NCBI GenBank assembly: GCA_045539625.1
Contig: JAZQFS010000016.1
Location: 2,971-66,970, forward strand
Direction: 5' to 3'
DNA length: 64,000 bases
DNA from: Eubacteriales bacterium
Lineage (GTDB): Bacteria > Bacillota > Clostridia > Oscillospirales > CAG-382
How positions within the stretch are numbered: position 1 is the first letter of the stretch; each line of letters opens with the position of its first letter. A model generated the notes under the pieces. That model did no database searches, was not told the origin of the DNA, and saw only the letters and a program-made list of their open reading frames with translations. Shown here piece by piece: positions 36,673 through 63,435 of the stretch. The position numbers were made by a program, and so were the translations under genes.

Positions 36673-36895
36673 TTGAACTACTGTGTTTCGCGGAAAGGGG
36701 TATATGGATAGGCTGGGGAGGATGGGTGCGGGAGGCGGGATGGTGAGGATAGCCATAGGTCTGTGTGGGGATGGGAAGAAAAGGTTGTTTTTTGGTTTTG
36801 AATGGTGGGGAGGTACAATAATTGAAACTTGACAACGAAGTTTTATAGTGGTAGAATTATGATACTATAAATTGTCATTGACTTTGGAGGTTTGT

Positions 36896-39817
36896 ATGAA
36901 ACGTTTTGTGTTTGTGATATTAGTATTTGCTATGTGCGTAACAGGAATTTCTACGACAGTATTTGCTCAAAGAGATGTCTCGAGAGAAGAAGTTCTTGCT
37001 AGTGAACTGAAAGAACTAGGCCTTTTCAGGGGTGTTTCAGAAACGGACTTTGATTTAGACAGAGAGCCTACCAGAGTTGAAGCACTTGTTATGCTTATTA
37101 GAGTCCTTGGCAAAGAAAGTGATGTAACAAATGATACATGGAAGCATCCTTTTACGGATGTCCCCGGATGGGCAGATAATTATGTTGGCTATGCTTATTC
37201 TAAAGGATTGACCAACGGACAATCTGATACAGAGTTTGGCGTGGGAAGTGCTAATGCTACAACATATTTAACTTTTGTACTCCGTGCTCTCGGATATTCT
37301 GATACAAATGGGAGAGATTTTAGCTGGAATGATCCTTATACTCTTGCCAGAGAAACCGGAACACTTTCTACTGAAGTGAACATTGATGATTTTTGGCGTG
37401 CAGATGTTGTTACTGTTTCTCATGCGGCACTTTCGGCATACCTCAATGGCTCACAGCAGACACTTGCACAAAAATTGATTTCTGCAGGTGTTTTTACACA
37501 GAGTGAATTCGATAGTGTTTACAATAGAGGAGCAAATGTCACAAAACCCACTCAAAGCGGTGAATTGACTGCCGAAGAAATATTTGCAAAATGTTCTCCT
37601 GCTGTGTTCTATATTGAGCTTTACGATAAAAATTATGACACAATTGCTTCGGGAAGCGGTTTCTTCATAGATGACAAAGGTACTGCTGTTACAAATTATC
37701 ATGTAATTGAAGATGCGTATTCCGCATTAATTCAGTTGTCTGATACGCAAGCTGTCCACAAAGTTCTTGGTGTTTACGATTATAATGTTGAGGAAGATTG
37801 GGCGATTATAAAGACTAGTTGCTCGGGCAACAAATATCTTAATATAGGTGATACTTCTACAGTTGTCGGTGGTGCAAAGGTTTATGCAATAGGCAGTCCT
37901 CTCGGACTTCAGAATACCATTTCTGAAGGCATTGTATCAAATCCTGCCAGAGTAGACGGCGGAGTGACGTATATTCAGACAAATGCGGCGATTTCGAGCG
38001 GAAGCAGCGGAGGTGCTCTCCTTAATAAGTACGGAGAAGTTGTTGGTATTACGTCTGCCGGTTATACAGAAGGTCAGAATCTTAATCTTGCATTGCCAAT
38101 GACATATCTTGAAGGTTATAAATTAAATCAAGTTACTGCTCTTAGCACATTATTTCCGGAAACATCCCAAAGCACTCAGAACCAACAGCAAAATGAAGCT
38201 GGAGGCAGCCGAAAAGAAATGGCATATTCACTTCTCAAAGGTTTTGTGATGCAAAACTATGATGAATATGATGATGATCTTGGGTGGTATATATACACAG
38301 AAAAATATGAAAAAGAAGATGGTTCAGGTTACGATTCTCTCGAGTTGTGCTACGACAAAGAAGATAACTATCTTATGATGTGCGTGAAAGATCTTTATTA
38401 TTCATCACATTCGTATTATTATGTCTTTGATATAACTTTGGATTATTCTCAAAGCATAGGTTTGTATTATTTTGATGCATATACTAACAATGCTGGTTTT
38501 GTGGAATATTCAAGCGGAGAAGCGTATGTGGATATTGCAGAATTCAGTCAAAGTTATAATTATGAGTTTGATGAATATGAAGGTAACAGCCAAGATAAAG
38601 AAGAACTTATTGCGGCTATTATGCATAATGACGGTTTAAATTTTATAAACTATCTTTTCTATACATATTTGAATGATTTTGGGTATTACAGCACAGAAGA
38701 TTTGGGATATACTTCGTATCGAAAATTTACCAGAGGAAGTTCGGCAAACACGGGTGAATCACAAAACGCACAATCTTCAACAACAGAAAGTGTTACGTAT
38801 AGATTAAACACTCAAAGCGTAACTGTTGATGCAGGAAAAACGACAAATGTTGAATTGAAATATTCATCTGTTGGTATACCCGGAAATATCAAAATGATTT
38901 TAACTTCAGCAGATGAAAGTGTTGCAACTGCAAAATGGGCAAACGATAATGCTTCATCGTCGCCGATGGATATTATTATTACTGCTGTTGCTTCCGGAAC
39001 TACTACTATAACGGTATCAAACAGATATACAAATGATGTCGCAGTAATTAATGTGACAGTAAATCCTAAGAATAAGAGTCAGCCTACTCCAGAGATTTCC
39101 TATTCTTTGAGTTCAACCAACGTAATGTTGAATGTTGGAAAATCCGAAATAATATATTTGGATTATGATTGTTCAAATTTTCCTGATGATTTTGACGTTT
39201 TTCTTGCTGTAGAAGATGAAAGCATAGCTGTTGCGAATTGGACAGACGGTGATGAGTTGCCTTGGGGAATAAAAATAAAAGGTGTTTCTAAAGGAACAAC
39301 TCAATTTAAAATATCCAACAGTTTTAACAATCAATATATAAAGGGAACAATCGTTGTTAGTTCATCCACAGGCAGTTCATCGGGCAGTTCATCGGGCAGT
39401 TCATCGGGCGGTTCAACAGGTGGTTCTTATTACGGGCCTTCCGGAAACACTTCTATTAGCAGTGTAGACACTATGTATGCTAAATTTGCAACTGCAAAAT
39501 TTCCACTGAAACTTTATTCCAATGATGGGAAAACATTTTTGGGAAAACTGACAACTAACAAATATGATATTGATAGTATTTCAAATGAATATGGTTCATA
39601 TGGAAGCAAATATTCGTCAACAAGTATTTTCAATGAATATGGAACGTACGGAAGTAAGTATAATTCAAACAGTGCATTTAACGAATATGCTTCCTACCCT
39701 CCGATAATCGTAGATAGCAATGGTAACTTTATAGCTTACCTTACTGCCAATACTTATAAGATCAATGGAATAACATTCTACAAATTAATGGCATATCTTG
39801 AACAATTTAATCAGTAA
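36896..39817 (+). CDS. secreted SLH-like / trypsin-like (S1, HtrA/DegP-type) serine protease with Ig-like (Big_2-like) domains and a C-terminal NEYG.YGSKY repeat domain
   Basis: Signal peptide MKRFVFVILVFAMCVTGISTTVFA. SLH-like FTDVPGWADNYVGYAYSKGL. Protease motifs TNYHVIED (His), DWAIIK (Asp), GSSGGALLN (Ser). RBS GGAGG lies before the ATG at 36896. Confidence 0.75.
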   Translation: MKRFVFVILVFAMCVTGISTTVFAQRDVSREEVLASELKELGLFRGVSETDFDLDREPTRVEALVMLIRVLGKESDVTNDTWKHPFTDVPGWADNYVGYAYSKGLTNGQSDTEFGVGSANATTYLTFVLRALGYSDTNGRDFSWNDPYTLARETGTLSTEVNIDDFWRADVVTVSHAALSAYLNGSQQTLAQKLISAGVFTQSEFDSVYNRGANVTKPTQSGELTAEEIFAKCSPAVFYIELYDKNYDTIASGSGFFIDDKGTAVTNYHVIEDAYSALIQLSDTQAVHKVLGVYDYNVEEDWAIIKTSCSGNKYLNIGDTSTVVGGAKVYAIGSPLGLQNTISEGIVSNPARVDGGVTYIQTNAAISSGSSGGALLNKYGEVVGITSAGYTEGQNLNLALPMTYLEGYKLNQVTALSTLFPETSQSTQNQQQNEAGGSRKEMAYSLLKGFVMQNYDEYDDDLGWYIYTEKYEKEDGSGYDSLELCYDKEDNYLMMCVKDLYYSSHSYYYVFDITLDYSQSIGLYYFDAYTNNAGFVEYSSGEAYVDIAEFSQSYNYEFDEYEGNSQDKEELIAAIMHNDGLNFINYLFYTYLNDFGYYSTEDLGYTSYRKFTRGSSANTGESQNAQSSTTESVTYRLNTQSVTVDAGKTTNVELKYSSVGIPGNIKMILTSADESVATAKWANDNASSSPMDIIITAVASGTTTITVSNRYTNDVAVINVTVNPKNKSQPTPEISYSLSSTNVMLNVGKSEIIYLDYDCSNFPDDFDVFLAVEDESIAVANWTDGDELPWGIKIKGVSKGTTQFKISNSFNNQYIKGTIVVSSSTGSSSGSSSGSSSGGSTGGSYYGPSGNTSISSVDTMYAKFATAKFPLKLYSNDGKTFLGKLTTNKYDIDSISNEYGSYGSKYSSTSIFNEYGTYGSKYNSNSAFNEYASYPPIIVDSNGNFIAYLTANTYKINGITFYKLMAYLEQFNQ

Positions 39818-40008: not shown

Positions 40009-41610
40009 CTAAAAGCAATGAGCCCGACTGCTCCAGATTATGGCAGTCGGGCGGTGCTGTATTCGGGCACAAAAACAGGGTTTAAATCCGAGATTAGGTC
40101 TCGGATTTGCCGCGGCACTTTGCCGCTGGTGGCTCAACATACCGGGCAGTCGAACACCCTGCTGTAATCCGGCGTCAATCTCCATAAGTGTAATTGTTCG
40201 GTTATCACCTGAATAGTTAAATGTTAATACGACCTTATCGTCATACACAAACACAGAATTTATGAAGGTCCTTATCAATCGTTTTTGACATTCTAAATCA
40301 GTGTAATCCATATTGGCAAACTGATGCAGGAAATAAATTATATGCTCTTTTGTAAGCCCTAAGTTTTCCTTTAATTTTGCCGATGCAAGTGCCGCCTTGA
40401 TCTCATTCTTTTGTTCATCAAGCTCGTCCATTCTCTGCTTTGTGGCATCGTTGAAAATGCCTTGCTCTATAGCTCTAACCAAATTGGAAATGGCTTTTTC
40501 TACTTCAGCCAAGCTCTTTTGCAGAGAATCTGTATATGAGGTGTCGGTATTCTGTGCTATGTAATACTGATATGTATTTTCTGCTATAAACTCTAATAGT
40601 TCTTCGTCCTGGACAAGTTTAATCACATATTCAAGCACAAGATTCTCTATCCATATCTGCCGAACCGGCTTTTTGTTACACAGTTTCTTACGTTGATTGT
40701 GACAGTAATAATAGTGATGGCGGTTTCCAGTTCTGCTTGTTCCGCACACCCCTACCATCATAGCACCGCATTTGCCGCAGAAAAGTTTTTCGGTTAGCAG
40801 ATATTCGACTTTAGAGTTCTTATGTGCCGCCGCTTTCTGATTGTATTTCAGCATTTCCTGAACCTTGTAAAAGGTTTCTTTATCTACAATGGGAGGAATG
40901 GCATTTTCCAAACGAACTTCATCTTTGTAAGTATATATGCCGATATATTTCTCGTTCTTCAATATTGTCCGCAGACTATTGTGCGTAAAAGGCTTTCCTT
41001 TTAATGTTCTGCAGCCTTGTTCGTTTAGCTTCTGCACAATTTCAGATATGGTTTTGCCTTTCGCATAAAGGTCAAAAACAAGTTTGACAGTTGGTGCGTT
41101 ATCGGGATCTATAATGAATTTCTTATCAGGACCGGTAAGATACCCTAAAGGTCTGTTGCCACCCGTGCTTTGTGCCTTTGCTGCACTTGCTCTTTGACCT
41201 CTCTTGATGTTTTGCGATAACTGCTCGGAGTAATAAGCCGCCATTCCTTCAATAACAGATTCAAGGATAATACCTTCGGGTGTATCGGGTATCATCTCGG
41301 CAACATAATAGATTTTAATGCCGTTTTTCTTGAGGTGATATTTGTTAAGTGCAATCTCTTCCTTGTTTCGCCCAATACGGTCTGTTTTCCAAACTATAAG
41401 TGCATCAAATTTATGCTTTGCCGCATCTGAAAGCATCAACTGAAACTGTTCTCGGTTATCGTTTCGCCCTGTCTGTGCCCTGTCAGCATACACGTGTATA
41501 ATTGTAAGTCCGTGTTCTGCCGCAAAGCGTTCAGCTTCGGCAACCTGACCTTCTATTGATTGCTCACCTTGTCTATGGCTCGAAAAACGGGCATAAACAA
41601 CAGCGTTCAT
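40009..41610 (-). CDS. large serine recombinase (integrase)
   Basis: N-terminal resolvase catalytic domain (AVVYARFSSHRQGEQSIEGQ, LIVWKTDRIGRN), recombinase domain, Zn-ribbon (CGKCGAMM...HHYYYC) and coiled-coil. The last ~42 codons run into the attL/terminator repeat. Confidence 0.88.
   Translation of the reverse strand: MNAVVYARFSSHRQGEQSIEGQVAEAERFAAEHGLTIIHVYADRAQTGRNDNREQFQLMLSDAAKHKFDALIVWKTDRIGRNKEEIALNKYHLKKNGIKIYYVAEMIPDTPEGIILESVIEGMAAYYSEQLSQNIKRGQRASAAKAQSTGGNRPLGYLTGPDKKFIIDPDNAPTVKLVFDLYAKGKTISEIVQKLNEQGCRTLKGKPFTHNSLRTILKNEKYIGIYTYKDEVRLENAIPPIVDKETFYKVQEMLKYNQKAAAHKNSKVEYLLTEKLFCGKCGAMMVGVCGTSRTGNRHHYYYCHNQRKKLCNKKPVRQIWIENLVLEYVIKLVQDEELLEFIAENTYQYYIAQNTDTSYTDSLQKSLAEVEKAISNLVRAIEQGIFNDATKQRMDELDEQKNEIKAALASAKLKENLGLTKEHIIYFLHQFANMDYTDLECQKRLIRTFINSVFVYDDKVVLTFNYSGDNRTITLMEIDAGLQQGVRLPGMLSHQRQSAAANPRPNLGFKPCFCARIQHRPTAIIWSSRAHCF
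40084..40132. repeat. attL of the serine-recombinase element (copy of the ssrA terminator plus CCACCA, junction J2)
   Basis: 49-bp copy of 36616-36664. Identity to the ssrA end stops after TGGTGG, and the element sequence (CTCAACATACC...) begins at 40133. Confidence 0.65.
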
Positions 41611-41685
41611 TACTTCACCTCCTATCGTTTTTGAGATAAATATTTTCTATAATACGAACTCGTTCTTATTAATATTGATATCATT

Positions 41686-44556
41686 CTATTTTTCAGAGAA
41701 CAATTTAGAAAATAATTCATCTATTTCTTCATATATCAGCTTATGAAAAACTTCCTTTTCAAAAAATCTAAATATTACAGAACTTCCTCTACTTATAATA
41801 TCTTTTTCGTTTTTTCCTAGTTTTAAAAGATTGTTTTTATAAAAATCATCTAATTCTCTAAATATATGTATTGGCTCTAAGGAAAATTCTATTATTGGTT
41901 TCGTCAGGCAAGATTCTTTATTAGCAATTTCTATATATTCATAACCACTGTTTTTACCATTACGATATACAATTGCTATGGTTTGAGTGTTTTTATACAC
42001 AGAAGACAGTATAGGAATGTACTCATGAGATATTTCATAAACTGCTTTTTTTACTAATTCTACTATCCTTTTTACTTTTTTTAATAGCTGTTCGTCCGAG
42101 TATACCGAATCAACATAATAACATCTTTCGGATGGAGTCATATCTTCCTTAATGTCTAGAAAGTTTTCTACTACTATTTTTTTGCTTATTAACAAGTTAC
42201 ATAACGCTTCTATTAAAGATGCATTTTTCACTTTATTGGTTGTATCACAAACATATGAAATAATACTTTCCACATCATTTTCATATAAACTCAACCTTTT
42301 ATTTCCGATCCTTATATCTTTTAATAAATTTTGCACCTTTTCAACTAATAAGACATCTATTTCGGTGTCGAATACTGTTTTGTTGCTTAAAGCTTCTTTC
42401 ATCTGTGTCTTAATTAAATCTATGGCTATCTCCCTGGAAGAGTCAAACCCATATGAAAGAAGTTCGAGATTATAATATCGTTGATGAATACCTCTGGATG
42501 AAAAAACAGAAGAGAAAATTGGAGAACTAAATCCATCTTTTGAAATAATCATAGGGGCATTACCTGTGGAAATTGTTGCTTCAATTTGGGTGCTTTCATC
42601 ACTACCATTGTATATAACCATTGATATTGAACCATCAACGAAATTTATAGTTCCTTTAATACAAGCTTTGCCGATATCCAGCAATGTATACCCATCGAAT
42701 GAATGTTTTATATTGTAAAAATACTTTTCAACTATATTAGTATAACTTTTTAAAATCTGTTCAAAGTATGCCTCTGCATACTCACTGTTTAAATCTTCTT
42801 CAACAGTAGTAAAGTTCCTTCTTGACTTTGTAGCCTTTATGTATAATTTTAAATTGTAATTCTCAAGATAATCTAAAACGATATTTTGTTTTTTTTGATT
42901 AGATATTATACCGGTTAAATAACAGATTATCTCGTAGTATTTTTCTTTGTTTATTACTTTATCCAACCACCCACATATATCCTCGGGATTCATTTTGGAA
43001 ACATACAGGGCTACAAAAAATTCCTGTATGGCTTTATGGAAAAATTTAATTCCTTGAGCCCCTTTGCATATTATGCCTGTTTCCCATATTATCTCGTATA
43101 TTTTTTCTGCTTTGCCAGATTCACAGAATTCGCTTAATGTTTCGAAAAATAAATCTGTACTATCTTCTTCATCATAAGTGAGTACTGCATATTTTGAAAG
43201 AGTTTGTTTAATTATGCTTTCTTCGTATAATGAACAAGACATGTTTTTAATTTTCTCATCTATATACATTTCGAATAACGACGAATGATTTGATGGGATT
43301 TTATACGTGCTGCTTTTTAAGACAAGCGATATGAACAACTTAAAAAACAGTGGCGTTCTTATTAATTCCAACAATCTGGTTGGTATATGATGAATGTTAA
43401 ATGGTATCATATCATTTGAGTACAGTTTAAGCAACTCTTGTAGCTTTTCATCTGACAATTTTTCAAGTGTATACTTGGTAAAATCGATACATAAGTCGTC
43501 CTTGTAATTCTGTTCTCTTGATGTAACCACAATAATATTTGAGGTATATCGTCTTAACTGATGCAATTCATATAGCAATTCATCATAATTGTGTTTTACC
43601 TCATCTAAAGCATCAAAAAGTATTATGAATCCGCCCTCATTGATTCTCTTTTCTACATATTCCTTTGTTGCAAATGGGAGGATAACACCTAGTTCTTTAA
43701 GAACACCTTCAACTATTGACTTATATACTTTCCCAAAATATCTCCCCTCTAAAACAACGGGAATTTTATCGTCTGACTCGTTATATTTTAGCAAATAATC
43801 TCTTAACATCATATAAATCAGATGTGTTTTTCCACCGCCGGGTTCAGAAACAATGATTTTGCTAGTATTATCTATAATATCCGTATAGTTTTGAACTTCA
43901 GTATCTATTCGAAGATTTGGAGAGTATAAAGTTTTTTCAAGAGTTCTATCTACGCTTACATACAATTCTTCTGTGCATTTTGTACGCATTACATTTTTGT
44001 AAGGTTCGTATATGCCTACCTTGTTCCATGTATCTTTATATTCCGAAGAGTTTTTGATTTTTAATATGTTTTGGTAGTTTAATCTATTAATTTCATCCCA
44101 CTTCGCAGGAATTTCACTAACCAAACATGAAAAAACACATGTGTCAGAATAGTTTGCATTAACTATATACCCCTCAATATTAACCCCATTAGATATCATA
44201 TATGCAACAGATTTTGTCCATGCTGAATAAAATACAGGTTGACCTTTAACTAATAATTTTTGCGTTGGTTTCTTCGCTTCAAAAACAAGCAAAATATGAT
44301 TATATACCCATTCCAAATTACTTGGTTTATTTTCCCTATTTTCTGCAAATTCGTTTGATGTGAATTGTAAGAAATCCGCGGCTTTCGCAGTTAATGGTTT
44401 CCCACCCTCGTAACCATATACAGGAAATTCTTCTGCTCGTAGTTCTATAGGATAACACAGTAATTCAAGTAAGGGCACTATTAGTTTACTTCTTACTTCT
44501 GCCTCGGATTGTATATTCTGTTTTAAAAAACATTCTATTAGTTCAGATACATTCAT
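41686..44556 (-). CDS. STAND (NACHT-like) NTPase with an N-terminal HsdR-N/Mrr-type PD-(D/E)xK nuclease domain; antiviral-STAND (Avs)-like
   Basis: N-terminus SEAEVRSKLIVPLLELL...AADFLQF...LLVFEAKKP (D...ExK). Walker A VSEPGGGKTHL, Walker B FIILFDALDEV. About 550-aa helical C-terminal region. About 30% GC by eye. Confidence 0.65.
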   Translation of the reverse strand: MNVSELIECFLKQNIQSEAEVRSKLIVPLLELLCYPIELRAEEFPVYGYEGGKPLTAKAADFLQFTSNEFAENRENKPSNLEWVYNHILLVFEAKKPTQKLLVKGQPVFYSAWTKSVAYMISNGVNIEGYIVNANYSDTCVFSCLVSEIPAKWDEINRLNYQNILKIKNSSEYKDTWNKVGIYEPYKNVMRTKCTEELYVSVDRTLEKTLYSPNLRIDTEVQNYTDIIDNTSKIIVSEPGGGKTHLIYMMLRDYLLKYNESDDKIPVVLEGRYFGKVYKSIVEGVLKELGVILPFATKEYVEKRINEGGFIILFDALDEVKHNYDELLYELHQLRRYTSNIIVVTSREQNYKDDLCIDFTKYTLEKLSDEKLQELLKLYSNDMIPFNIHHIPTRLLELIRTPLFFKLFISLVLKSSTYKIPSNHSSLFEMYIDEKIKNMSCSLYEESIIKQTLSKYAVLTYDEEDSTDLFFETLSEFCESGKAEKIYEIIWETGIICKGAQGIKFFHKAIQEFFVALYVSKMNPEDICGWLDKVINKEKYYEIICYLTGIISNQKKQNIVLDYLENYNLKLYIKATKSRRNFTTVEEDLNSEYAEAYFEQILKSYTNIVEKYFYNIKHSFDGYTLLDIGKACIKGTINFVDGSISMVIYNGSDESTQIEATISTGNAPMIISKDGFSSPIFSSVFSSRGIHQRYYNLELLSYGFDSSREIAIDLIKTQMKEALSNKTVFDTEIDVLLVEKVQNLLKDIRIGNKRLSLYENDVESIISYVCDTTNKVKNASLIEALCNLLISKKIVVENFLDIKEDMTPSERCYYVDSVYSDEQLLKKVKRIVELVKKAVYEISHEYIPILSSVYKNTQTIAIVYRNGKNSGYEYIEIANKESCLTKPIIEFSLEPIHIFRELDDFYKNNLLKLGKNEKDIISRGSSVIFRFFEKEVFHKLIYEEIDELFSKLFSEK

Positions 44557-44564
44557 TTATATAA

Positions 44565-45188
44565 TTACTCCTTGAATCTGTCTTTGCTATTACTATCACA
44601 TGTCTTTTTCAACACAGCCACCAAAACCTTATGATCATACACTGACTGTATTGAAGCTGACAATAATTCTTCTTTATCAACATTGCCCCAATTTACATCA
44701 TACCCCATTCGTTTTGCCATAAGACGAATAAATTCACGAATGGGACGTCCGTTACCTTCTCTGAATGGATGAATTATGTTGAGTTCCGCCATAACATATG
44801 CAAGATTATCAAAAACCTTTTCTTCATTTGATTCTCTTAACATATTCTTTTCTTTTATCTTTGCAAACACTTTATCAAGCTCTCTGTCAATCAAGTTCGG
44901 AGGATAGAACATTGTATCAGCTTTACTGATTTGTTCTCGTCTGAGTTTTCCCGCAAACGAGTAAATATCTTCAAATATAAACTTGTGTATATTCATAAGA
45001 TGGGCTTTTGTAAAATTACCCTTGATGGGATTTTTCAAAAGCTCCATTTGTTTAATTAAGGTTATTTCTTCCTCAGCCGTTTTTAAAATACTGTTATCTG
45101 TTATGTTCAGCTTGTTTTTCAACACATTGCTGTTTGGATAACAATAAATAGATTGTGTAGTGGTATATACTTCGTATTTTGAAAACAT
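44565..45188 (-). CDS. Fic-domain protein (class I FicT/VbhT-like toxin)
   Basis: Canonical Fic motif HPFREGNGRPIREF. 207 aa. Located 2 nt downstream of the VbhA-like gene. Confidence 0.85.
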   Translation of the reverse strand: MFSKYEVYTTTQSIYCYPNSNVLKNKLNITDNSILKTAEEEITLIKQMELLKNPIKGNFTKAHLMNIHKFIFEDIYSFAGKLRREQISKADTMFYPPNLIDRELDKVFAKIKEKNMLRESNEEKVFDNLAYVMAELNIIHPFREGNGRPIREFIRLMAKRMGYDVNWGNVDKEELLSASIQSVYDHKVLVAVLKKTCDSNSKDRFKE

Positions 45189-45190
45189 AA

Positions 45191-45562
45191 TTATACCCTC
45201 TGCATATATTTTCGTTTAAGCTCTTCAATCATTTGGGTATAGCTAATTTTACCGCTGTCAATTCTTTTCAGGTTTTCTATCCCGCTTTTACTTACTTTCA
45301 TACCTTCTACCGCAAAAGTACCTTTAAGGTTTTTCAAATTACTTTCAAAATTGTTGGATTCCATAACAGTTTTATTTCTCCAATCTGTATATTTACCGGA
45401 CTTGATTCTGGCATCAGCAGGCTTTTGTGCATTTTTAGGCAAAAGCCATGCACCGGCAATTTTTGTTGCACCTTCAATTCTGCCTTCGTTGCATAATACG
45501 GTAATTCTTCTGATAGAAATACCCCACATCAAGCTTGCTTCTTTTATTGTTAGTATATCCAC
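45191..45562 (-). CDS. HTH (MerR/excisionase-type) fused to a VbhA-like Fic antitoxin domain
   Basis: HTH LTIKEASLMWGISIRRITVLCNEGRIEGA. C-terminal inhibitory motif TFAVEG, matching (S/T)xxxE(G/N). The GTG start at 45562 is preceded by AAAGAGGTG. The longer ORF-track start would include the promoter. Confidence 0.7.
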   Translation of the reverse strand: MDILTIKEASLMWGISIRRITVLCNEGRIEGATKIAGAWLLPKNAQKPADARIKSGKYTDWRNKTVMESNNFESNLKNLKGTFAVEGMKVSKSGIENLKRIDSGKISYTQMIEELKRKYMQRV

Positions 45563-45584
45563 AATGGCACCTCTTTTTGCTAAT

Positions 45585-45613
45585 ATTATATACCACATTT
45601 GGAACAATGTCAA
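45585..45613 (-). promoter_or_regulatory. consensus promoter of the VbhA-Fic-(STAND) operon
   Basis: Minus strand: TTGACA, 17-nt spacer, TATAAT. Confidence 0.65.
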
Positions 45614-45655: not shown

Positions 45656-46279
45656 TTATTCCTTAACTGTATCTAAATTCAGTGCAAGTCTTGCAGTATT
45701 TCTGTCTTTAAGACTTGCCTTATCATATGCTCTTGCAACCTCATACGCATTTGCAGAAAGCTCACTTGGCATATATGCTTTGCCGCCTGCCCACACTTCG
45801 AGCGGTACATTCAGCGTTTCTGATAACTGCATTGCAATAGGAAGAGGTGCGTCCTTCATCCTTCGGGTTATAATAGAACGTACTTGTCTGTCGGTAAGCC
45901 CGGTAACTCTTACAATATCGGAAATATATAACCCCATTTTCATTGTTACCTCAATGAAAATCTTGTAAAAAGGAAGACCTTCAAGCTCGTTGCATAACTC
46001 TTCGTACACTGCTTCCGATTCGGTATCACCCAAAAGGTAATCAACTGAAACCTTTAATTTTTCGGCATACTTGCTTACCTGTTCAATTTTGGGTGAACGC
46101 TGTCCAAGCTCGTAACGGCTGAGTATCTGTTTTGAAGTACCAAGCATTTTAGCAAATTCATCTTGCGAGAGCCCTTTTTCTTTACGAAGTTCTCGTAGTC
46201 TTTCTCCAAACGAAGTAAAATGCAAATCCACATCGGGCAGGCTGTCTATAACAGCCTGTTCTTTTTTGCTGTCATTCAT
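45656..46279 (-). CDS. XRE-family HTH regulator (repressor-like) with a C-terminal domain
   Basis: FGERLRELRKEKGLSQDEFAKMLGTSKQILSRYELGQRSP. The ATG at 46279 is preceded by AAAGGAG. Confidence 0.8.
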   Translation of the reverse strand: MNDSKKEQAVIDSLPDVDLHFTSFGERLRELRKEKGLSQDEFAKMLGTSKQILSRYELGQRSPKIEQVSKYAEKLKVSVDYLLGDTESEAVYEELCNELEGLPFYKIFIEVTMKMGLYISDIVRVTGLTDRQVRSIITRRMKDAPLPIAMQLSETLNVPLEVWAGGKAYMPSELSANAYEVARAYDKASLKDRNTARLALNLDTVKE

Positions 46280-46389
46280 ATCACTCAAACTCCTTTGTTT
46301 GTAATTCTGCACATATCTACATACATATTATAACTCATTAAATCCACATTGTCAATATCTTTTGTAAAATTATATGAATTTGTCGACAA

Positions 46390-46437
46390 ACGGTTGACAA
46401 ACGGCGAAATATACTGTAAAATAGCATTGTCAACCGT
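46390..46437 (+). promoter_or_regulatory. promoter (TTGACA-17 nt-TAAAAT) bracketed by an 11-bp inverted repeat; candidate XRE operator
   Basis: ACGGTTGACAA 46390-46400 and TTGTCAACCGT 46427-46437. -35 at 46394-46399, -10 at 46417-46422. Additional direct GACAAACGG copies are present. Confidence 0.55.
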
Positions 46438-46518
46438 ACGGTGACACAATGCAGACGATTCAAGGAGGTGTCTAAAAATGATATTAATATTCGGATAAAC
46501 CCGAAAGAAATTCCAAGC

Positions 46519-46641
46519 ATGGAGAAAAAATTACTGTGTGCTACTTTTCTTGATGCAGTTATACGGTTTTACCAAAATCCCAATAACGAGCTTGCATTCA
46601 GAAAATGGTATGCGGAGAAAGGAGGAAAAGTCAATGGATGA
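46519..46641 (+). CDS. 40-aa hypothetical protein
   Basis: MEKKLLCATFLDAVIRFYQNPNNELAFRKWYAEKGGKVNG. It overlaps the next ATG by 8 nt. The RBS is weak. Confidence 0.3.
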   Translation: MEKKLLCATFLDAVIRFYQNPNNELAFRKWYAEKGGKVNG

Positions 46642-46864
46642 AAGAATGGAAAAAATGCTGCGAGAGAAATACCCCCATCACATACCCCTTAAAGTTGCAT
46701 CAAAGTTTCTTGCAGTATCGCCCCGACAGTTATCAAAGCTAATTGCAGACGAACGAAAGCCCTTTTGTGAAATAGGTGCTAATATCGGGACAAAACAGAA
46801 GTATGCCAGAATCTATACAGGCAGAATGATTAAGTATCTCAAAGGCGAATTGCCCTATGACTAA
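46634..46864 (+). CDS. small HTH protein (excisionase/Cro-like)
   Basis: RBS GGAGGA lies 7 nt upstream. IPLKVASKFLAVSPRQLSKLIADERKPF resembles an HTH. Confidence 0.5.
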   Translation: MDERMEKMLREKYPHHIPLKVASKFLAVSPRQLSKLIADERKPFCEIGANIGTKQKYARIYTGRMIKYLKGELPYD

Positions 46865-57899: not shown

Positions 57900-58436
57900 A
57901 TGTCAGAGTATGAGTTGCTCAGAAATGAAATTGTTGAATGTTATGATACCATAAAGCAATACAATTTGGCGGCATATGCTACTGTAGTGGCAATTTTTGC
58001 TTTTGCAACTGAACAGAGTGATAGTTTTTTATACTATTTAATTCCTTATGTTGCAATTATTCCGCTGTATATTGCGTGTGAAAGTAAAAATCATAATATT
58101 TGTAAAATTGCGGCGTATATGTATGTTTTTTTAGAAGGTGATAATAAATATAATTGGGAACGTAGACATCAAAAATATGATGAGCTATTTAGTCAAAAAA
58201 GAAATTGGAGATCAATTTCTTTATATTACTTCTTGTCAATATTATGTTCGATAATGTCAATTGTAAAAATCTATATGTTAAACTACAATTTACACATAAA
58301 ACTACTTTTTAGCATACTTGTATTTGTATTTACAATAGTTGTAATTGTTATTATGAAGGCAAATACTATCAATTATGTTGATTGCAGAAAAACAATGATA
58401 GAGAATTGGGAGAATATAAATAAATCAGTGGATTAA
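57900..58436 (+). CDS. 4-TM membrane protein, unknown function
   Basis: 178 aa. N-terminal soluble helix, two TM pairs separated by a basic loop (NWERRHQKYDELFSQKRNWR). Very AT-rich. Confidence 0.6.
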   Translation: MSEYELLRNEIVECYDTIKQYNLAAYATVVAIFAFATEQSDSFLYYLIPYVAIIPLYIACESKNHNICKIAAYMYVFLEGDNKYNWERRHQKYDELFSQKRNWRSISLYYFLSILCSIMSIVKIYMLNYNLHIKLLFSILVFVFTIVVIVIMKANTINYVDCRKTMIENWENINKSVD

Positions 58437-58514
58437 GTGCTAGATATGTGACATTGATAGAAAATTGTTGATTTCTTGAATAAAAGAAAAAGTTATAAAT
58501 TAATTGATAATATT

Positions 58515-58575
58515 GGACCGCCCTCTAAACAATTCTGCTTTAGAGGGCGGTCCTTCTTCTGTAAATGAAAATACA
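58515..58575 (+). repeat. hairpin-tail module C (terminator-like)
   Basis: GGACCGCCCTCTAAA...TTTAGAGGGCGGTCC, then TTCTTCTGTAAATG. The tail is shared with the modules at 60607 and 63342. Confidence 0.6.
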
Positions 58576-58700
58576 ACATTTTAAATATTATACACATCAA
58601 CACAAAAACTAAAAACAATCAATTGTCTTTAATTTGAGAAAGTGGATTGCATAATATTGCATATAGTTTTACAAGACGATATCAGGAGTAAATACTTGTA

Positions 58701-59855
58701 TTAGTTTTCTCGGTTTTCCTTTTTAAATTGTTTTTGCTTTAATACTATCGCTTCTAATTCTTTTTGATGCATATCTATTTCTTTTTCGTACTCTCGTTTC
58801 TCTTTGCTTACATCAAATATGTTTATGTATGCAACAACAATGGAAAGTATGGCTGTGATGAGTGGGAATATAGTTAAAATTGTAATTTCTTCGTAAAACT
58901 TTCCTTCCACTGCTATCGCAAATGTAATAGTAAGCGCAATTACAAGGAGGAATGAGGTCATCATTAAAACGCTATTCTTGGTTTTGTTCCTTTTTTCCTT
59001 GTGTTTAATTTTAAGTTCGGAAATTTGTTTTTTTAAGGTGTTTTCTTCCTCTTTTGCGGAGTGAAATTCAAGTATTGATTTAAACTTTTTTAATTTTTCT
59101 CGAATTGATTCATCGGAAAGTATGGTATAACAAACATTAAAAACTTGTTCACCGTAATTTGCACTCGTATTTTCTAGATCAGGTATTTGAGAAATAGAAA
59201 ATGCTTTTCGTATTTTCCAATCAAACATTATTGTCTCAATGTTTGTGAAAACAGTTCCACCAGAAACTTTTGAGTAAATCTCATATTCGTCTTTGCTTGC
59301 TTTATTAAAAACTTGATACACTTTTTTTTCGTTGATAATATCTCCAATTTTCAAATATAAACTTCTCATTGCAGCGGAACTTATAGCATCTGTTTCCATA
59401 ACGGTTAGATTAACATCACATAGTGGCAAAATAAGTTTTAATATATCCGTATACCCTGCCTGACAATCAAAAAGCACAACATCATATTTTTGAAAAATAT
59501 CATTATGTATTAGTGATTTGCCGTCATCTTTATGGGTATATGTTTTTGTGATTTCTTTTGTTATTTGCGTTATAGAAGGTATAAAATCACAATTAGAATT
59601 TATATTTACAAAACTTGTTTTTTTATTGTTATTATCACAAAAAAGTAAGTCATAAAATGACAGTATATTCTTCTTTTTATGTGACAATTTGTCTTCATAG
59701 AAATATGTTGCACCATTAGTGCTTAAATCGCAATCTACTAAAAGGGTCTTTATTCCACACCTAGATAAAAGAGAAGCCATGCTTAATGCTAATGTGGTTT
59801 TTCCACTACCACCTTTTCCGCTAATAAAAGAGATTGTTTTACACATGTTTTTCAC
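58701..59855 (-). CDS. ParA/MinD-superfamily P-loop ATPase fused to a coiled coil and two C-terminal TM helices
   Basis: Deviant Walker A SGKGGSGKTT, A' LLVDCDLS, Walker B VVLFDCQAG. KE-rich coiled coils flank VLMMTSFLLVIALTITFAIAV and ILTIFPLITAILSIVVAYINIF. Confidence 0.7.
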   Translation of the reverse strand: MKNMCKTISFISGKGGSGKTTLALSMASLLSRCGIKTLLVDCDLSTNGATYFYEDKLSHKKKNILSFYDLLFCDNNNKKTSFVNINSNCDFIPSITQITKEITKTYTHKDDGKSLIHNDIFQKYDVVLFDCQAGYTDILKLILPLCDVNLTVMETDAISSAAMRSLYLKIGDIINEKKVYQVFNKASKDEYEIYSKVSGGTVFTNIETIMFDWKIRKAFSISQIPDLENTSANYGEQVFNVCYTILSDESIREKLKKFKSILEFHSAKEEENTLKKQISELKIKHKEKRNKTKNSVLMMTSFLLVIALTITFAIAVEGKFYEEITILTIFPLITAILSIVVAYINIFDVSKEKREYEKEIDMHQKELEAIVLKQKQFKKENREN

Positions 59856-60376
59856 CTCGCATTAATACTTCCTAAATTTCCTGTATTCAAATTCTCATTG
59901 AATTTTTGCACTCTATCATCGTTATTTTCACTGGAGTTTTCAATATCTGAAATGTTATCTTCTTTGCTTACACACAATATAAAACAATCTAGTAACATAT
60001 AGGCCATAACGCATATAGAGATTATAAACATAGTTGTATGCAAATTTTCGTTATATTCTGCAGTAAACAGAATAATTGCGGATATAACCAAAATGGAACC
60101 TATTGCAAAACAAAACAATGAGAGCAGAATTCTAGTAACTAACTCGTTTTTTCCGTGTATCCTTGGAGTAAATTCCATTAGCAGAGCAAGTGAAAATATA
60201 AAATATGCACTTCCTACGCCAACATTTAAATCCTTTACAACATATATACCACCAATCCAACATATAATCCAAACTAACAACTTAATAATATATTCCATTT
60301 TTCCACTATACAAGTGCATTTCAGAAAAAATACTTATTATTTTGTTCACATAATCCACCATCCTATCATCTTCCAA
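59852..60376 (-). CDS. 4-TM membrane protein with an acidic C-terminal tail, translationally coupled to the ParA-like gene
   Basis: 4-nt overlap (ATGA-type) with the downstream gene. Four hydrophobic helices. The start could be the ATG at 60361. Confidence 0.55.
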   Translation of the reverse strand: MEDDRMVDYVNKIISIFSEMHLYSGKMEYIIKLLVWIICWIGGIYVVKDLNVGVGSAYFIFSLALLMEFTPRIHGKNELVTRILLSLFCFAIGSILVISAIILFTAEYNENLHTTMFIISICVMAYMLLDCFILCVSKEDNISDIENSSENNDDRVQKFNENLNTGNLGSINAR

Positions 60377-60606
60377 AATTCAACATTTTATTACATATTA
60401 TACCATAATATATTCGTTTTTTCAATGTAAATTTTGAAAACATAGCTTTAGTTTAGATATTTTGTCGAGCATATAAATGCACAATAATTTGATTTTAAGC
60501 TATAATTTGTACTATGAACAAAATAAAGCATTAGATATGCTTTAAATTGTTATATTTACATTTCAAAATGGCTAGAGTGGATATTTGATTGCGAGTAATT
60601 AAACAG

Positions 60607-60685
60607 GAACTACCACCCAAGCCAATCACATCTTGGGTGGTAGTTCTTCTGTAACTGTAAAGATATTTCTGTCAATATACAGAGA
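60607..60685. repeat. hairpin-tail module A (about 80% identical to 63342-63418)
   Basis: ACTACCACCCAAG...CTTGGGTGGTAGT, then TCTTCTGTAACTGTAAAGATATTTCTGTCAATATACAGAG. Confidence 0.7.
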
Positions 60686-60773
60686 TAGATATTTGTATTG
60701 TGTTTATCTGCTGCAAAAAATGTTTTTTTATTGAATTAGAACTTTTACATTATTTAATGTTATAGCACTAATT

Positions 60774-61865
60774 TCAACCATCGGTTTTTACTGAATACTC
60801 TTTTAAAAATAGATTTGGTAAGAAAATATCCCTTCTCAAATCGTAATCTTTGATAGCGTTTTTAAGGCTTAACTTGGGATTGGTGGTAACCGGATCTTGA
60901 AGTAATTTTGCGGGTTCCTGTAAAATTTTTATCGTATCATCGTCCAGTTGTTTGGATAGATAATAATCCTCTGTATATAAAAAAATAATACGATTAATTA
61001 TTTCAAGTCGTTGTTCCTGTGAAAGGCTAGCTATATGGTCTTCAAATTGTCTATATCTTGTGCTTTTTGAATCAACAAACAGAATTATTGCCGTAGCATT
61101 TTTCAGAGGAAAAACAGCAATATGTATATACTCAATTTTATAGTTGTGTTTGTGGTTAAAAATATTATTGATTTCTTCTCCATCAATACCAGTTATTAGT
61201 GGAATCATACCTTGAAATGCTATAGGACACGTGTGATTTAATTTATCATAAGAAACTACTCTGATCCAACTTTCAGAAGTTGTCAAAAAAGATTTCGAAA
61301 CATTATAGATTTCATAGCATTCTTGAATATCTCGTTTTCTTGCTTCAATTTGAGCATCAAGAATCTTATTTACAAACAACGATAATATCGGATTCTTTTC
61401 TTTTATGAGACCTTTACAATCTTCAAAAAGCTCTGTTTCGGTTTCATGCTTATAGATATCTCTTAAAGCATTTTTTAGTGCTATTTGGTTTAGTGCTATT
61501 TCTGTAGGATATTTTTCGTATGCCTCTACTTTTTCATAATTTTGAAACACACGGCCATCGCAGGATTTACAAATAATGTGAAAAATTCCCGCATTGCCTA
61601 TTCCGGAATCGTTACTAAGTAATTTTGAATCAATTAATGTATTAAACGAATTCAATTTTCCGTTCCATGCAATATTTTCAAGGCAAAACCGGGGAATCGT
61701 GTGTGAATCACAAAACCCACCCTCTTTGCCGCACAGCAGACATTTTTTATGTCGGGACTTTTTTCTTGCGTCTTTAATTTGTGTGTTTAACTTTCTCTTT
61801 ATCTCAATTATTTCTTCAGTAGTTAAACCATCGGTGCCCATATCAATTCTTTTAATAAATATCAC
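60774..61865 (-). CDS. hypothetical Cys-rich protein; possible degenerate HNH/Zn-ribbon nuclease
   Basis: CLLCGKEGGFCDSHTIPRFCL ... HIICKSCDGRVF (CxxC...H...CxxC). The rest has no recognisable family. The start codon is uncertain (GTG 61865 or ATG 61841). Confidence 0.5.
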   Translation of the reverse strand: MIFIKRIDMGTDGLTTEEIIEIKRKLNTQIKDARKKSRHKKCLLCGKEGGFCDSHTIPRFCLENIAWNGKLNSFNTLIDSKLLSNDSGIGNAGIFHIICKSCDGRVFQNYEKVEAYEKYPTEIALNQIALKNALRDIYKHETETELFEDCKGLIKEKNPILSLFVNKILDAQIEARKRDIQECYEIYNVSKSFLTTSESWIRVVSYDKLNHTCPIAFQGMIPLITGIDGEEINNIFNHKHNYKIEYIHIAVFPLKNATAIILFVDSKSTRYRQFEDHIASLSQEQRLEIINRIIFLYTEDYYLSKQLDDDTIKILQEPAKLLQDPVTTNPKLSLKNAIKDYDLRRDIFLPNLFLKEYSVKTDG

Positions 61866-62018
61866 CCCTATAAAACAAAATTTCTTCGATTTTACTTATC
61901 CAATGGACTATCCACAAATTTCTTGCTTACACTAACATTTTATCACAATTAAAATAATCGCATCGCATTATACATTGTGTTTACCCAGTTCTGCTATTTT
62001 TCCCAAATCCAGTCACAT

Positions 62019-62354: not shown

Positions 62355-62367
62355 TTTTTCAAGCGAT

Positions 62368-63153: not shown

Positions 63154-63341
63154 ATTAATTCCTCTTTTGTTCAAACTATAATAACATATATTATATCAAA
63201 AGCATATTAATAAATCTGCCCATTTCTCATAAATACACTATTTATTCAATACTTGATATTGTATCAGTTCTTTTTATGCTTTCATTATATAACAATTCTA
63301 GTGCAAAAACCATATAGTTTCGAAAAACATTTTATGACAAA

Positions 63342-63418
63342 AACTACCACCCAAGTCCATCACGACTTAGGTGGTAGTTCTTCTATAAATGCAAAGACAT
63401 TCCTGACAATATGCAGGG
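63342..63418. repeat. hairpin-tail module B; serves as the island-supplied terminator of ssrA
   Basis: On the minus strand, ACTACCACC...GGTGGTAG followed by TTTTT, about 50 nt after the ssrA CCA end. Confidence 0.65.
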
Positions 63419-63435
63419 TTCGACTTTGCGTGTTA

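Follow-up and report, generated by a model that had tools for sequence, protein, structure and literature searches.

Stacking of an antitoxin-Fic cassette and a nuclease-NACHT STAND gene beside a serine recombinase: two probably independent modules under one promoter

Introduction

Does a Fic toxin-antitoxin pair which shares an apparent operon with a nuclease-NACHT STAND NTPase form a single defence system with it, or do separate modules merely lie side by side? This question is raised by three genes found in the order antitoxin, Fic, STAND on the minus strand (open reading frame list and direct reading of that strand) of the 64-kb stretch of Eubacteriales DNA analysed here, referred to as the window. 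A preliminary description had proposed a fixed operonic combination in which Fic could act as a guard of the STAND sensor or as a second effector. Class I Fic toxin-antitoxin modules, VbhTA and FicTA, are reportedly the subject of work by Engel and co-workers from 2012. All features given below lie on the minus strand.

Results

Layout and transcription of the locus

The antitoxin gene is preceded by a sigma-70 promoter (45585-45613) whose hexamers TTGACA (45613-45608) and TATAAT (45590-45585), separated by 17 nt, match the consensus in 12 of 12 positions. In the 64-kb window 0.03 occurrences of this exact pattern would be expected, and three are present. Both hexamers and their spacing are invariant in nine antitoxin-Fic loci that show no other relationship upstream, and the promoter evidently marks the 5' boundary of a mobile antitoxin-Fic cassette. 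The TTG start of the mechanically called antitoxin frame (45191-45613) falls inside this promoter and was rejected; the true start is the GTG at 45562, 7 nt past the ribosome binding site AAGAGG, which yields a protein of 123 amino acids (45191-45562). The antitoxin stop codon (TAA, 45193-45191) is followed by two nucleotides (tt) and the ATG of the Fic gene at 45188, while the Fic stop codon (TAA, 44567-44565) is separated by 8 nt from the STAND ATG at 44556. The STAND ribosome binding site AAGGAG covers the last two Fic codons, and this 8-nt junction would by its very arrangement force some coupling of STAND expression to that of Fic. Promoter, spacings and ribosome binding site are as the preliminary description had given them.

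A terminator scan revealed no convincing terminator within the three-gene unit; two weak terminator-like matches inside the STAND gene are at shuffle level (3 found versus 2.6 expected). Nor is there a conserved internal promoter between the three genes: a promoter-like site matching in 10 of 12 positions is present in the Fic 3' end (44663-44634), its -10 hexamer being conserved neither in locus L075 nor in the sister element L087. Because of the gene spacing the three genes are likely co-transcribed from the antitoxin promoter, as had been supposed, with nothing found that would separate STAND from the other two.

The claimed adjacency to the integrase of the island was likewise verified, as a large serine recombinase (40009-41610; Pfam Resolvase, Recombinase and Zn_ribbon_recom) begins 75 nt past the STAND stop on the same strand. 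RNA folding of the intervening spacer (41611-41685; z-score +1.1) showed no hairpin followed by a T-run and thus no terminator. The spacer retains the ribosome binding site AGGAGGTGA, and sequence comparison reveals that in L087 AGGAGGTGA overlaps the Fic stop codon. The transcript probably runs on into the recombinase gene, presumably its last.

Antitoxin and Fic toxin

The antitoxin comprises an N-terminal winged helix-turn-helix (HTH) of the Xis/BldC/MerR type (residues 1-42), a linker and a C-terminal part of three helices carrying the Fic-inhibitory motif T82-F-A-V-E86-G, which belongs to the VbhA-type class (S/T)xxxE(G/N). Homologues form 151 clusters, and among the 120 listed nearly all are 123 amino acids long. 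HTH_17 matches all 20 family members (best E 1.8e-7) and Pfam VbhA 7 of the 20, at a best E of 3.9e-4 and below the curated cutoff; both T82 and E86 are invariant. Superposition of the HTH from an AF2 model (pLDDT 79) on Xis and BldC gives an rmsd of 1.4-1.7 Å, excisionases and BldC being the closest folds by model comparison.

The Fic protein (44565-45188, 207 amino acids) is a class I, VbhT/FicT-like AMP-transferase with the active-site motif H140-PFREGNGR-148. It matches Pfam Fic (E 1e-16), NCBIfam VbhT (141.7 bits) and VbhT in the PDB (3zcb, E 1.1e-32). It resembles the VbhTA/FicTA modules (Harms et al. 2017, PMC5675462) in that 184 residues of its FIC domain can be aligned with VbhT (E 1e-32), its HPFREGNGR motif has the canonical form, an antitoxin gene with the (S/T)xxxE(G/N) motif lies immediately upstream and the pair resides on mobile DNA. 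In contrast to these modules, the antitoxin has 123 instead of about 60 amino acids and bears the N-terminal winged HTH, and the toxin has neither a BID nor any other C-terminal domain. A full-text literature search returned no description of a winged HTH fused to a VbhA-type antitoxin. At 226 bits the toxin matches PDC-S04, which is a candidate system only; the PDC are PADLOC phage-defence candidates nominated from defence-rich neighbourhoods. The neighbours of Fic loci include AbiA, Gabija, type I RM, SoFic and PDC-S02. SoFic itself is a different, longer Fic subfamily (28 bits for the window protein), and its antitoxin AS1 is encoded downstream (PMC12249575).

The STAND protein

The STAND gene (41686-44556) encodes 956 amino acids, with about 47 full-length homologues of 30-94% identity, and its AF2 model has a pLDDT of 85 and a pTM of 0.80. 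Residues 1-170 (44047-44556) form a PD-(D/E)xK nuclease domain of the HsdR_N type with the catalytic candidates D61, E93 and K95; these and K96 are invariant in the alignment. HSDR_N_2 matches 9 of 12 homologues of this domain (best E 2.2e-5), the window copy itself not being matched. The domain is common to more than 50 loci with other C-terminal architectures (42-54% identity), and next to these further loci sharing it alone no Fic gene was found. The NACHT module (about residues 215-585; 42802-43914) harbours a Walker A motif EPGGGKT (G240, G242, K243) and a Walker B motif ILFDALDE (D315, D318, E319). Its best Foldseek matches are NLRC4, NOD2 and NLRP3 (E 1e-10 to 1e-8), the family profile finds NLRC4 in the PDB (E 4e-7), and among 30 members Pfam NPHP3_N matches 20, nSTAND3 19 and NACHT 13. 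For the C-terminal domain (residues 586-956; 41689-42801) TPR or LRR repeats were rejected since the AF2 secondary structure is a non-repeat mixed alpha/beta fold; profile and PDB searches gave no family or PDB match. As NLR-like proteins are tripartite, this domain is presumed to be the sensor.

Profiles and structures uphold the assignment of the three genes as HTH-VbhA-like antitoxin, class I Fic and nuclease-NACHT STAND. The further designation "Avs-like" stands as far as a STAND NTPase with a nuclease effector and a logic of sensing and then oligomerisation is meant. It does not stand in the strict sense, as the NTPase groups structurally with the NACHT proteins, a TPR-like sensor is absent and PADLOC gives no match of any kind, including Avs and NLR models. 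PADLOC v2 is taken to include Avs models. Closer relatives in design are bNACHT25, a bacterial NLR-related protein with an Mrr-like REase effector (Kibby et al., 10.1101/2022.07.19.500537), and the NACHT antiphage protein EruA (NCBIfam NF058535). With these the window protein shares a single tripartite polypeptide of N-terminal restriction-endonuclease-fold effector, NACHT and C-terminal sensor, a usually solitary gene and an effector domain which is swapped among relatives. It differs from them in its HsdR_N-type nuclease, a non-repeat alpha/beta C-terminal fold for which no relative was found, the lack of a PADLOC model match, an EruA score of just 24 bits where the cutoff is 1000, and a defence role that is putative.

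Distribution of the cassette and the STAND gene

The comparison drew on a limited sample from gut and rumen metagenomes, with about 14 contexts each for STAND and for antitoxin-Fic. Twelve other contexts, all devoid of STAND, conserve the promoter, the antitoxin, the 2-nt gap and Fic; in them unrelated DNA sets in a few bases beyond the -35 hexamer on its upstream side, so that promoter, antitoxin and Fic form a common autonomous cassette. The stand-alone copies L092 and L099 close with intrinsic terminators. Elsewhere Fic is followed by AbiA at 36 nt (PADLOC 774 bits), by an Stk2-like kinase overlapping it by 4 nt, by a serine recombinase at 4 nt, by a SoFic-like second Fic, by a 246-aa unknown gene beyond which lie PDC-S02 and, after it, Gabija GajA, by a PadR operon or by a convergent housekeeping gene. 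AbiA, the kinase and STAND are three abortive-infection-type genes, each promoter-less directly behind the cassette, an arrangement for which chance stacking may not be the whole explanation.

Conversely, tblastn shows 12 of 14 testable contexts of full-length STAND homologues to lack both Fic and antitoxin; these Fic-less homologues (33-62% identity) have diverse neighbours, and STAND is normally a solitary gene. Upstream of the homologue in L107 a promoter-like motif, TTGATT-17-TATAAT, was read by eye. The trio is confined to the terminal clade of the window (STAND at least 77% identical), which in a neighbour-joining tree comprises the window and P0002 with P0003/P0004 as sister lineage. 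Since L001, of the P0004 type, is without Fic, the Fic-STAND linkage is derived. The proposed fixed combination of Fic and STAND is contradicted by these contexts, and the recurrent linkage looked for in other genomes is largely absent, the trio being seen in one small clade.

A 3.0-kb difference from the sister element

The closest antitoxin-Fic relative of the window, L087, has no STAND gene at all and joins Fic directly to the recombinase. In blastn it matches the window at 48018-44623 (89.5%) and again at 41623-40146 (83%); in L087 itself these matching blocks lie just 28 nt apart. The stretch missing from it (41624-44622) consists of a new Fic tail, STAND and 62 nt of the spacer; the last 19 Fic codons (44623-44565), part of this stretch, show no homology to L087. 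The window thus appears to differ from L087 by a 3.0-kb insertion bearing STAND. No direct repeat flanking the stretch was found. Its GC content is 0.30-0.33 versus 0.36-0.41 in neighbouring DNA, and this lower GC together with the difference from L087 counts for an insertion. The N-terminal 204 residues of the recombinase are 98% identical in L075, where it also lies directly downstream of STAND. On the other side of the cassette, an XRE/RstR-type repressor (45656-46312; HTH_3 E 2.9e-20, NCBIfam RstR) with a separate 12/12 promoter (46355-46327) is present in L087 and absent from L076 and L077; it belongs to the element, not to the cassette.

Inheritance and decay of the trio

Homology of the window to L076 and L077, whose promoter-to-STAND modules are identical, runs exactly from the promoter to the STAND stop, while the flanking context differs. 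The window and L076 are separated by a STAND dS of about 1.2, and dN/dS is 0.05-0.2 on Fic segments and STAND. Within this small clade the trio has been inherited as a unit and, as the low dN/dS of Fic implies, Fic was under purifying selection beside STAND most of that time. The trio at such a dS, with different flanks and low Fic dN/dS, is no fleeting accident and counts against a reading of the two modules as independent, as does the 8-nt junction. In the three assemblies L076, L077 and L078, which share an identical STAND, codon 63 of the antitoxin has lost 1 nt and Fic is frameshifted twice, by +1 at codon 107 and by -1 at codon 147 within GNGR, while the STAND frame of 962 aa is intact. 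L076 keeps the decayed toxin-antitoxin region, promoter included, as the 5' leader of STAND.

Discussion

We favour, at a probability of roughly 0.7, the reading that an integrative element carries, stacked at its recombinase end, two modules which are independent of each other and each of a known kind, STAND being on the toxin-antitoxin promoter, and that the coupling is transcriptional and historical instead of an obligate functional partnership. The winged HTH of the antitoxin presumably autoregulates the invariant promoter, and the VbhT-like Fic is presumably kept from binding ATP by the T-x-x-x-E-G helix in the C-terminal part of the antitoxin. FicT/VbhT toxins AMPylate gyrase and topo IV (PMC5675462). 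Freed Fic would AMPylate its likely targets GyrB/ParE and arrest growth, so that the cassette would serve the element for addiction or abortive infection. L087 would preserve the ancestral state, with the cassette translationally coupled to the serine recombinase. STAND would have arrived as the 3.0-kb insertion between Fic and recombinase, replacing the last Fic codons, and since the insertion brought no promoter it would now be transcribed from that of the toxin-antitoxin pair. As a single-gene NLR-like sensor it may detect an infection cue with its C-terminal domain, whereupon the NACHT NTPase would oligomerise and the PD-(D/E)xK nuclease be activated to cut DNA. As in defence islands and cargo hotspots, variable defence genes lie between conserved anchors and sister elements differ by presence or absence; unlike there, the anchor is a toxin-antitoxin cassette which also supplies the cargo promoter.

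A guard or second-effector role of Fic in an integrated three-component defence, as suggested in the preliminary description, would agree with the operonic spacing, with inheritance of the trio over two element backgrounds under purifying selection on each of the three genes and with the match of the Fic family to PDC-S04. Yet we consider it very improbable: linkage is missing from 12 of the 14 STAND contexts that could be tested and from every one of the 12 further antitoxin-Fic contexts, it is a derived trait of a single terminal clade, L087 does without STAND, L076, L077 and L078 maintain an intact STAND beside a pseudogenised toxin-antitoxin pair, and a full-text literature search found no description of a Fic-NACHT system. 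Possible, with clearly less weight than the stacking of independent modules, is that the cassette chiefly serves the element, its Xis-like antitoxin and promoter controlling expression of the recombinase for integration and excision, post-segregational killing stabilising the element and STAND being passive cargo unconnected with either role. The antitoxin-Fic-recombinase array of L087 with its overlapping Fic stop and recombinase ribosome binding site, the retention of the same site after STAND in the window with no terminator, the excisionase/BldC-like HTH and the frequent adjacency of the cassette to large serine recombinases are consistent with this. The cassette is, however, also carried in recombinase-less core chromosomal contexts (L099-L106, L092-L097), and the proposal overlaps with the stacking of independent modules.

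It is rather unlikely, in our view, that the cassette is a portable autoregulated switch which repeatedly captures abortive-infection genes at the +1 position. Infection or element loss would here deplete a labile antitoxin and derepress the promoter, and the downstream STAND, AbiA or kinase gene would be induced together with free Fic, the third gene being interchangeable and the coupling residing at the level of expression. Such a switch would fit the invariant promoter and HTH-bearing antitoxin, the missing room for a promoter before AbiA (36 nt), kinase (4-nt overlap), STAND (8 nt) and recombinase (4 nt), the terminators of cassette copies without a tight third gene and the decayed leader retained in L076. 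But the slot also holds recombinase, housekeeping or unknown genes and may be a mere cargo hotspot of integrative elements, and L076 keeps STAND despite its frameshifted antitoxin, for which reason regulated expression cannot be required for STAND retention. A possible novelty lies in the recurrence of abortive-infection genes immediately downstream of the antitoxin-Fic cassette.

Organisation of the gene array

On the minus strand, between 41686 and 45613, ORF listing and direct reading of the sequence bore out the layout given in the preliminary description: an antitoxin gene (45191-45562), a Fic toxin gene (44565-45188) and a gene coding for a STAND protein of 956 residues (41686-44556) follow one another behind a single consensus promoter. 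The latter reads TTGACA-17-TATAAT (45613-45585; 12/12 match), a pattern which in its exact form occurs three times in 64 kb while 0.03 occurrences are expected. The antitoxin ORF as called mechanically begins at a TTG inside this promoter; the real start is the GTG at 45562, located 7 nt past AAGAGG. As had been described, two nucleotides separate the antitoxin stop codon (45193-45191) from the Fic ATG (45188), and the STAND ATG (44556) lies 8 nt past the Fic stop codon (44567-44565), its ribosome binding site (RBS) AAGGAG covering the final two Fic codons. No credible terminator was found within the unit reaching from the promoter to the STAND gene. A candidate internal promoter at the 3' end of the Fic gene (44663-44634; 10/12) is probably non-functional, since relatives do not keep its -10 hexamer and promoter-like matches in this region are no commoner than in shuffled sequences.

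The STAND gene is followed, after a spacer of 75 nt, by the gene of a large serine recombinase (40009-41610, minus strand). As this spacer retains a strong RBS and no hairpin was found within it, the transcript probably reaches the recombinase gene which, judged from the sequence, would be part of the transcript of the trio. Between 39850 and 40150 the recombinase ORF enters a GC-rich stretch directly past the terminator of an upstream host gene (36872-39817), with the GC content stepping from about 0.45 to about 0.36. This is probably the boundary or an attachment site of the element, so that the ORF finder may have misplaced the C-terminus of the recombinase.

The toxin-antitoxin pair

The Fic toxin comprises 207 residues and carries the active-site motif H140-PFREGNGR-148, read in translation, which conforms to the canonical HPFx(D/E)GN(G/K)R. 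It reaches 61.9 bits with the Pfam Fic model (cutoff 24), matches VbhT in the PDB (3zcb/3shg) with an E-value of 1e-32 over 184 residues (10-193) and is matched by PADLOC PDC-S04 (PDLC04838) with 226.1 bits and an E-value of 9.5e-68 (residues 8-199 of 207). With the NCBIfam VbhT model it scores 141.7 bits, staying under the equivalog cutoff of 800 because the half harbouring the BID domain is missing. On these sequence grounds the toxin is classed as an AMP-transferase of the class I VbhT/FicT type.

The antitoxin is 123 residues long, a length found in almost every one of the 120 homologue clusters listed, out of 151 found. Its residues 1-42 constitute a winged helix-turn-helix (HTH) domain, to which HTH_17 matches in 20 of 20 homologues and which in the AF2 model superposes on lambda Xis and BldC at 1.4-1.7 Å. 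The C-terminal part consists of three helices and contains the sequence T82-FAV-E86-G, whose T82 and E86 are invariant in 20 homologues. The antitoxin is hence encoded by a separate small gene directly upstream of the toxin and contains the class I Fic inhibitory motif (S/T)xxxE(G/N). Pfam VbhA yielded sub-threshold matches only (7 of 20 antitoxin homologues), and VbhA in the PDB was retrieved neither by the antitoxin sequence profile nor by Foldseek with the antitoxin model; it is the invariant motif together with the weak Pfam matches and the gene order which leads us to assign the protein to the VbhA type. Compared to class I FicTA/VbhTA modules, the pair is alike in toxin homology, motif and upstream position of the antitoxin but differs by the fusion of the latter to an HTH domain. 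A full-text literature search returned no description of an HTH-fused VbhA antitoxin, and the relatives of the antitoxin on IMG/VR viral contigs are HTH-only.

The STAND protein

Used alone, the sequence of the 956-residue protein gave nothing useful in Pfam, PDB and PADLOC searches; its identification needed family-level profiles and a structure model. With the HMMs of Avs1-5 and the curated STAND families of PADLOC there was no family matching at E <= 0.01, and by HMM the protein is not an Avs. The Walker A (EPGGGKT) and Walker B (ILFDALDE) motifs of a P-loop NTPase are present, with G240, G242 and K243 of the former and D315, D318 and E319 of the latter being invariant. The AF2 model (pLDDT 85) consists of three domains and retrieves NLRC4, NOD2 and NLRP3 via Foldseek at E-values from 1e-10 to 1e-8, while the family profile finds NLRC4 in the PDB at 4e-7. 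Pfam NPHP3_N, nSTAND3 and NACHT match 13-20 of 30 family members, though not the window protein itself. The protein is a NACHT-clade STAND NTPase of tripartite effector-NTPase-sensor architecture, in which the C-terminal domain would take the part of the sensor. This domain, 370 residues in length, is a non-repeat alpha/beta domain without known relative. Within the N-terminal 170 residues D61 and E93-x-K95 are invariant. HSDR_N_2 matches 9 of 12 homologous nuclease domains (best E-value 2.2e-5) although not the window copy, and the profile of the nuclease domain has no match in the PDB. The invariant residues and the HSDR_N_2 matches of the homologues point to a PD-(D/E)xK nuclease, putatively of the HsdR_N type.

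A full-library profile search at E <= 1e-30 yielded about 198 clusters of this STAND family at the 50% identity level. Some clusters share the NACHT and C-terminal domains only, under other N-termini, and many share the nuclease domain only. The 170-residue nuclease domain (44047-44556) is found at 42-54% identity in more than 50 loci (L004-L074), whose remainder differs, being proteins of about 500 residues or architectures with TPR, Sel1 or pentapeptide repeats. This domain exchange among nuclease/NACHT proteins is effector shuffling. Each part of the array belongs to a known kind, a class I Fic toxin-antitoxin pair and a nuclease-NACHT NLR-like protein.

Recurrence of the Fic-STAND combination

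About 47 full-length STAND homologues were collected, and DNA was recovered for 17 loci, both from genome and metagenome collections and through exact look-up. According to tblastn and ORF inspection, a Fic gene is present upstream of the STAND gene only in L075, which belongs to the same element (STAND 94% identical), and in L076/L077 (77%). The 12 other STAND contexts with enough upstream sequence (33-62% identity) contain neither Fic nor antitoxin and have unrelated neighbours. Of 14 testable STAND contexts, only two thus show the combination put forward in the preliminary description as fixed and operonic, and these two belong to one terminal clade; from the antitoxin-Fic side the STAND gene is absent in 12 of 12 other contexts. 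Nor are all components intact wherever the trio occurs, as in L076/L077 a frameshifted antitoxin and a frameshifted Fic gene stand beside an intact STAND gene. Since co-occurrence and integrity both fail, the proposal of a fixed multi-gene system cannot be upheld. The interpretation given in the preliminary description is thus supported in part. The operon is plausible, and within one small clade the trio is inherited together, but it does not make up a fixed or obligate system.

In a neighbour-joining tree the window protein and the homologue P0002 form a terminal clade whose sister lineage (P0003/P0004) includes the Fic-less type of locus L001; the Fic-STAND linkage is therefore derived. By tblastn, no Fic was found at further loci sharing the nuclease domain only. 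No plasmid record matches the region at the DNA level, and a protein-level search of plasmids and phages gave distant NACHT proteins only, the best of which, from a Lysinibacillus plasmid, has no Fic neighbour. IMG/VR viral contigs contained no relative of the STAND protein, and the literature search found nothing specific on a Fic-plus-NACHT or Fic-plus-STAND system. At L013 (also L012, L014 and L023) a STAND homologue of 55% identity is flanked by a 36-nt direct repeat (83%; 5834-5869 and 8894-8929 of that locus) whose copies lie 3060 nt apart and duplicate the 5' end of a low-molecular-weight phosphotyrosine phosphatase gene, as if a cassette had been inserted with duplication of its target.

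The 123-residue antitoxin is common, and in the 12 further contexts it always precedes a Fic protein of about 198 residues, almost always at a distance of 2 nt (the exception, L135, shows a 4-nt overlap). The promoter hexamers of this cassette are invariant, and homology ends only a few bases beyond the -35 hexamer in the upstream direction. The gene after Fic varies between contexts, the STAND gene occurring in none of them. It is AbiA 36 nt on (PADLOC AbiA, 774 bits), a Stk2-like kinase overlapping Fic by 4 nt and adjoining a type I RM system, a SoFic-like second Fic, or a 246-residue gene of no known function followed by PDC-S02 and then Gabija GajA/GajB. Elsewhere it is a PadR operon, an IS element, a serine recombinase 4 nt on or, at a core chromosomal site, a terminator with convergent cell-division genes. 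Among loci L079-L086, L088-L091 and L125-L139 the AbiA, Stk2-like kinase and SoFic-like genes stand directly behind the cassette, so closely that a promoter would hardly fit in between, if at all. In L098 (5393-9388) one antitoxin-Fic cassette precedes an array of at least four more Fic-domain genes.

Comparison with the sister element and history of the trio

L087 (GCA_045604605.1, JAZUOL010000119.1) represents a sister element without STAND gene which has an antitoxin 98% identical to the window copy and the same XRE repressor upstream. It aligns with the window over 48018-44623 (89.5%) and then over 41623-40146 (83%). As these blocks lie only 28 nt apart in L087, the window contains an extra 3.0 kb (41624-44622), in which the STAND gene and a spacer of 62 nt are preceded by new sequence in place of the final Fic codons. 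The STAND gene has the lowest GC content of the region (0.30-0.32); no convincing direct repeats flank the insertion. Comparison of L087 6001-8544 and window 40009-45613 showed that the recombinase RBS AGGAGGTGA of L087 shares nucleotides with the Fic stop codon; an identical copy of this RBS stands after the STAND gene in the window. This overlap implies that the recombinase is apparently expressed from the toxin-antitoxin promoter, presumably under autoregulation, and suggests toxin-antitoxin control of integration or excision, the HTH of the antitoxin being excisionase-like. The array in the window is a recent insertion of cargo into a toxin-antitoxin-recombinase operon. Since the STAND gene came without a promoter, it is expected to be expressed from that of the cassette.

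Homology between the window and L076/L077 covers precisely the interval bounded by the promoter and the STAND stop codon (45618-41686; 77%), while the flanks differ, with DUF6809 and NikA-like genes upstream and a DUF2971/PDC-S31 gene downstream in L076/L077; the three genes have therefore moved together. When the window is compared with L075, dN/dS amounts to 0.10 (Fic) and 0.17 (STAND); in the comparison with L076 the STAND value is 0.11, at a dS of 1.17, and the in-frame Fic segments give 0.05-0.2. These low values indicate that Fic was maintained beside STAND through most of the divergence of window and L076. In L076/L077, however, the antitoxin has lost 1 nt at codon 63, and the Fic frame shifts by +1 at codon 107 and by -1 at codon 147, which lies within GNGR, while the STAND gene, identical also in L078 (three assemblies from two projects), is an intact ORF of 962 codons. 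STAND is thus retained without a functional toxin-antitoxin pair. We rejected assembly errors as the origin of the frameshifts because L076 and L077 stem from two projects and yet are identical from the promoter through STAND. Between window and L075, dS is uneven (STAND 0.18, Fic 0.46, recombinase 0.40), suggesting that the STAND gene alone was recently exchanged by recombination.

Further features of the integrated element

Two near-consensus, outward-facing promoters within 46312-46440 (46355-46327, minus strand, 12/12; 46394-46422, plus strand, 11/12) lie between an XRE/RstR-type repressor and small plus-strand genes (46441-46864), a layout resembling a CI/Cro-type switch for the element. 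The genes between 50278 and 57828 code for cohesin, dockerin, SLH and BspA-type LRR surface proteins, one of 1534 residues, and make up mobile-element cargo of cellulosome- or amylosome-like character. A block of very low GC content (58000-63800; 0.28-0.32) with a ParA-like ATPase (58701-59855, minus strand) and genes of no known function adjoins a tmRNA gene (63436-63789, minus strand), which is a classic site of integration, and the island may be of composite make-up.

Discussion

The best-supported reading is that two independent modules, the toxin-antitoxin cassette and the STAND gene, are stacked. Within the cassette, the antitoxin HTH would autoregulate the promoter and the T-x-x-x-E-G helix would obstruct ATP binding in Fic which, once freed, might AMPylate GyrB/ParE as has been shown for VbhT and FicT (PMC5675462). 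The cassette could in this way serve the element, through addiction or abortive infection, and, in the ancestral layout, would drive the recombinase too. For the STAND protein, by analogy with bNACHT25, the C-terminal domain may sense an infection cue upon which the NACHT domain would oligomerise and activate the nuclease; bNACHT25 and other bacterial NLR-related proteins normally act alone (10.1101/2022.07.19.500537). That the Fic pair guards the STAND protein or serves as its second effector, as originally put forward, has become very improbable with the Fic-less homologues and the frameshifted pairs beside an intact STAND gene.

The variety of genes behind the cassette bears on two related readings. 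The cassette may be a switch by which infection controls the expression of interchangeable abortive-infection genes, which we consider unlikely; the AbiA and kinase contexts would accord with it, but the position is also taken by a recombinase and, in other contexts, by housekeeping genes or genes of no known function. Likewise improbable is the proposal of a portable, self-regulated leader which recurrently captures promoter-less AbiA, Stk2-like kinase or nuclease-NACHT genes at the +1 position, loss of the antitoxin in infection at once freeing Fic and inducing a second, exchangeable immune effector. A role of the cassette chiefly in controlling the recombinase and stabilising the element, to which the arrangement in L087 relates, remains and overlaps with the account of two stacked modules.

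The locus provides a worked example of how operon-like spacing, here a tight three-gene array with a single promoter, can mislead. Fusion with an excisionase-type HTH marks a widespread variant of the class I Fic antitoxin (151 clusters found), and the nuclease-NACHT proteins constitute a family of about 200 clusters at 50% identity which is missed by PADLOC and only weakly matched by NCBIfam. If the promoter of the cassette is infection-responsive, autoregulation of the toxin-antitoxin pair would be linked to the induction of immune genes, and if the leader proposal is true, a toxin-antitoxin module would act as an infection-responsive transcriptional switch for immune sensors.
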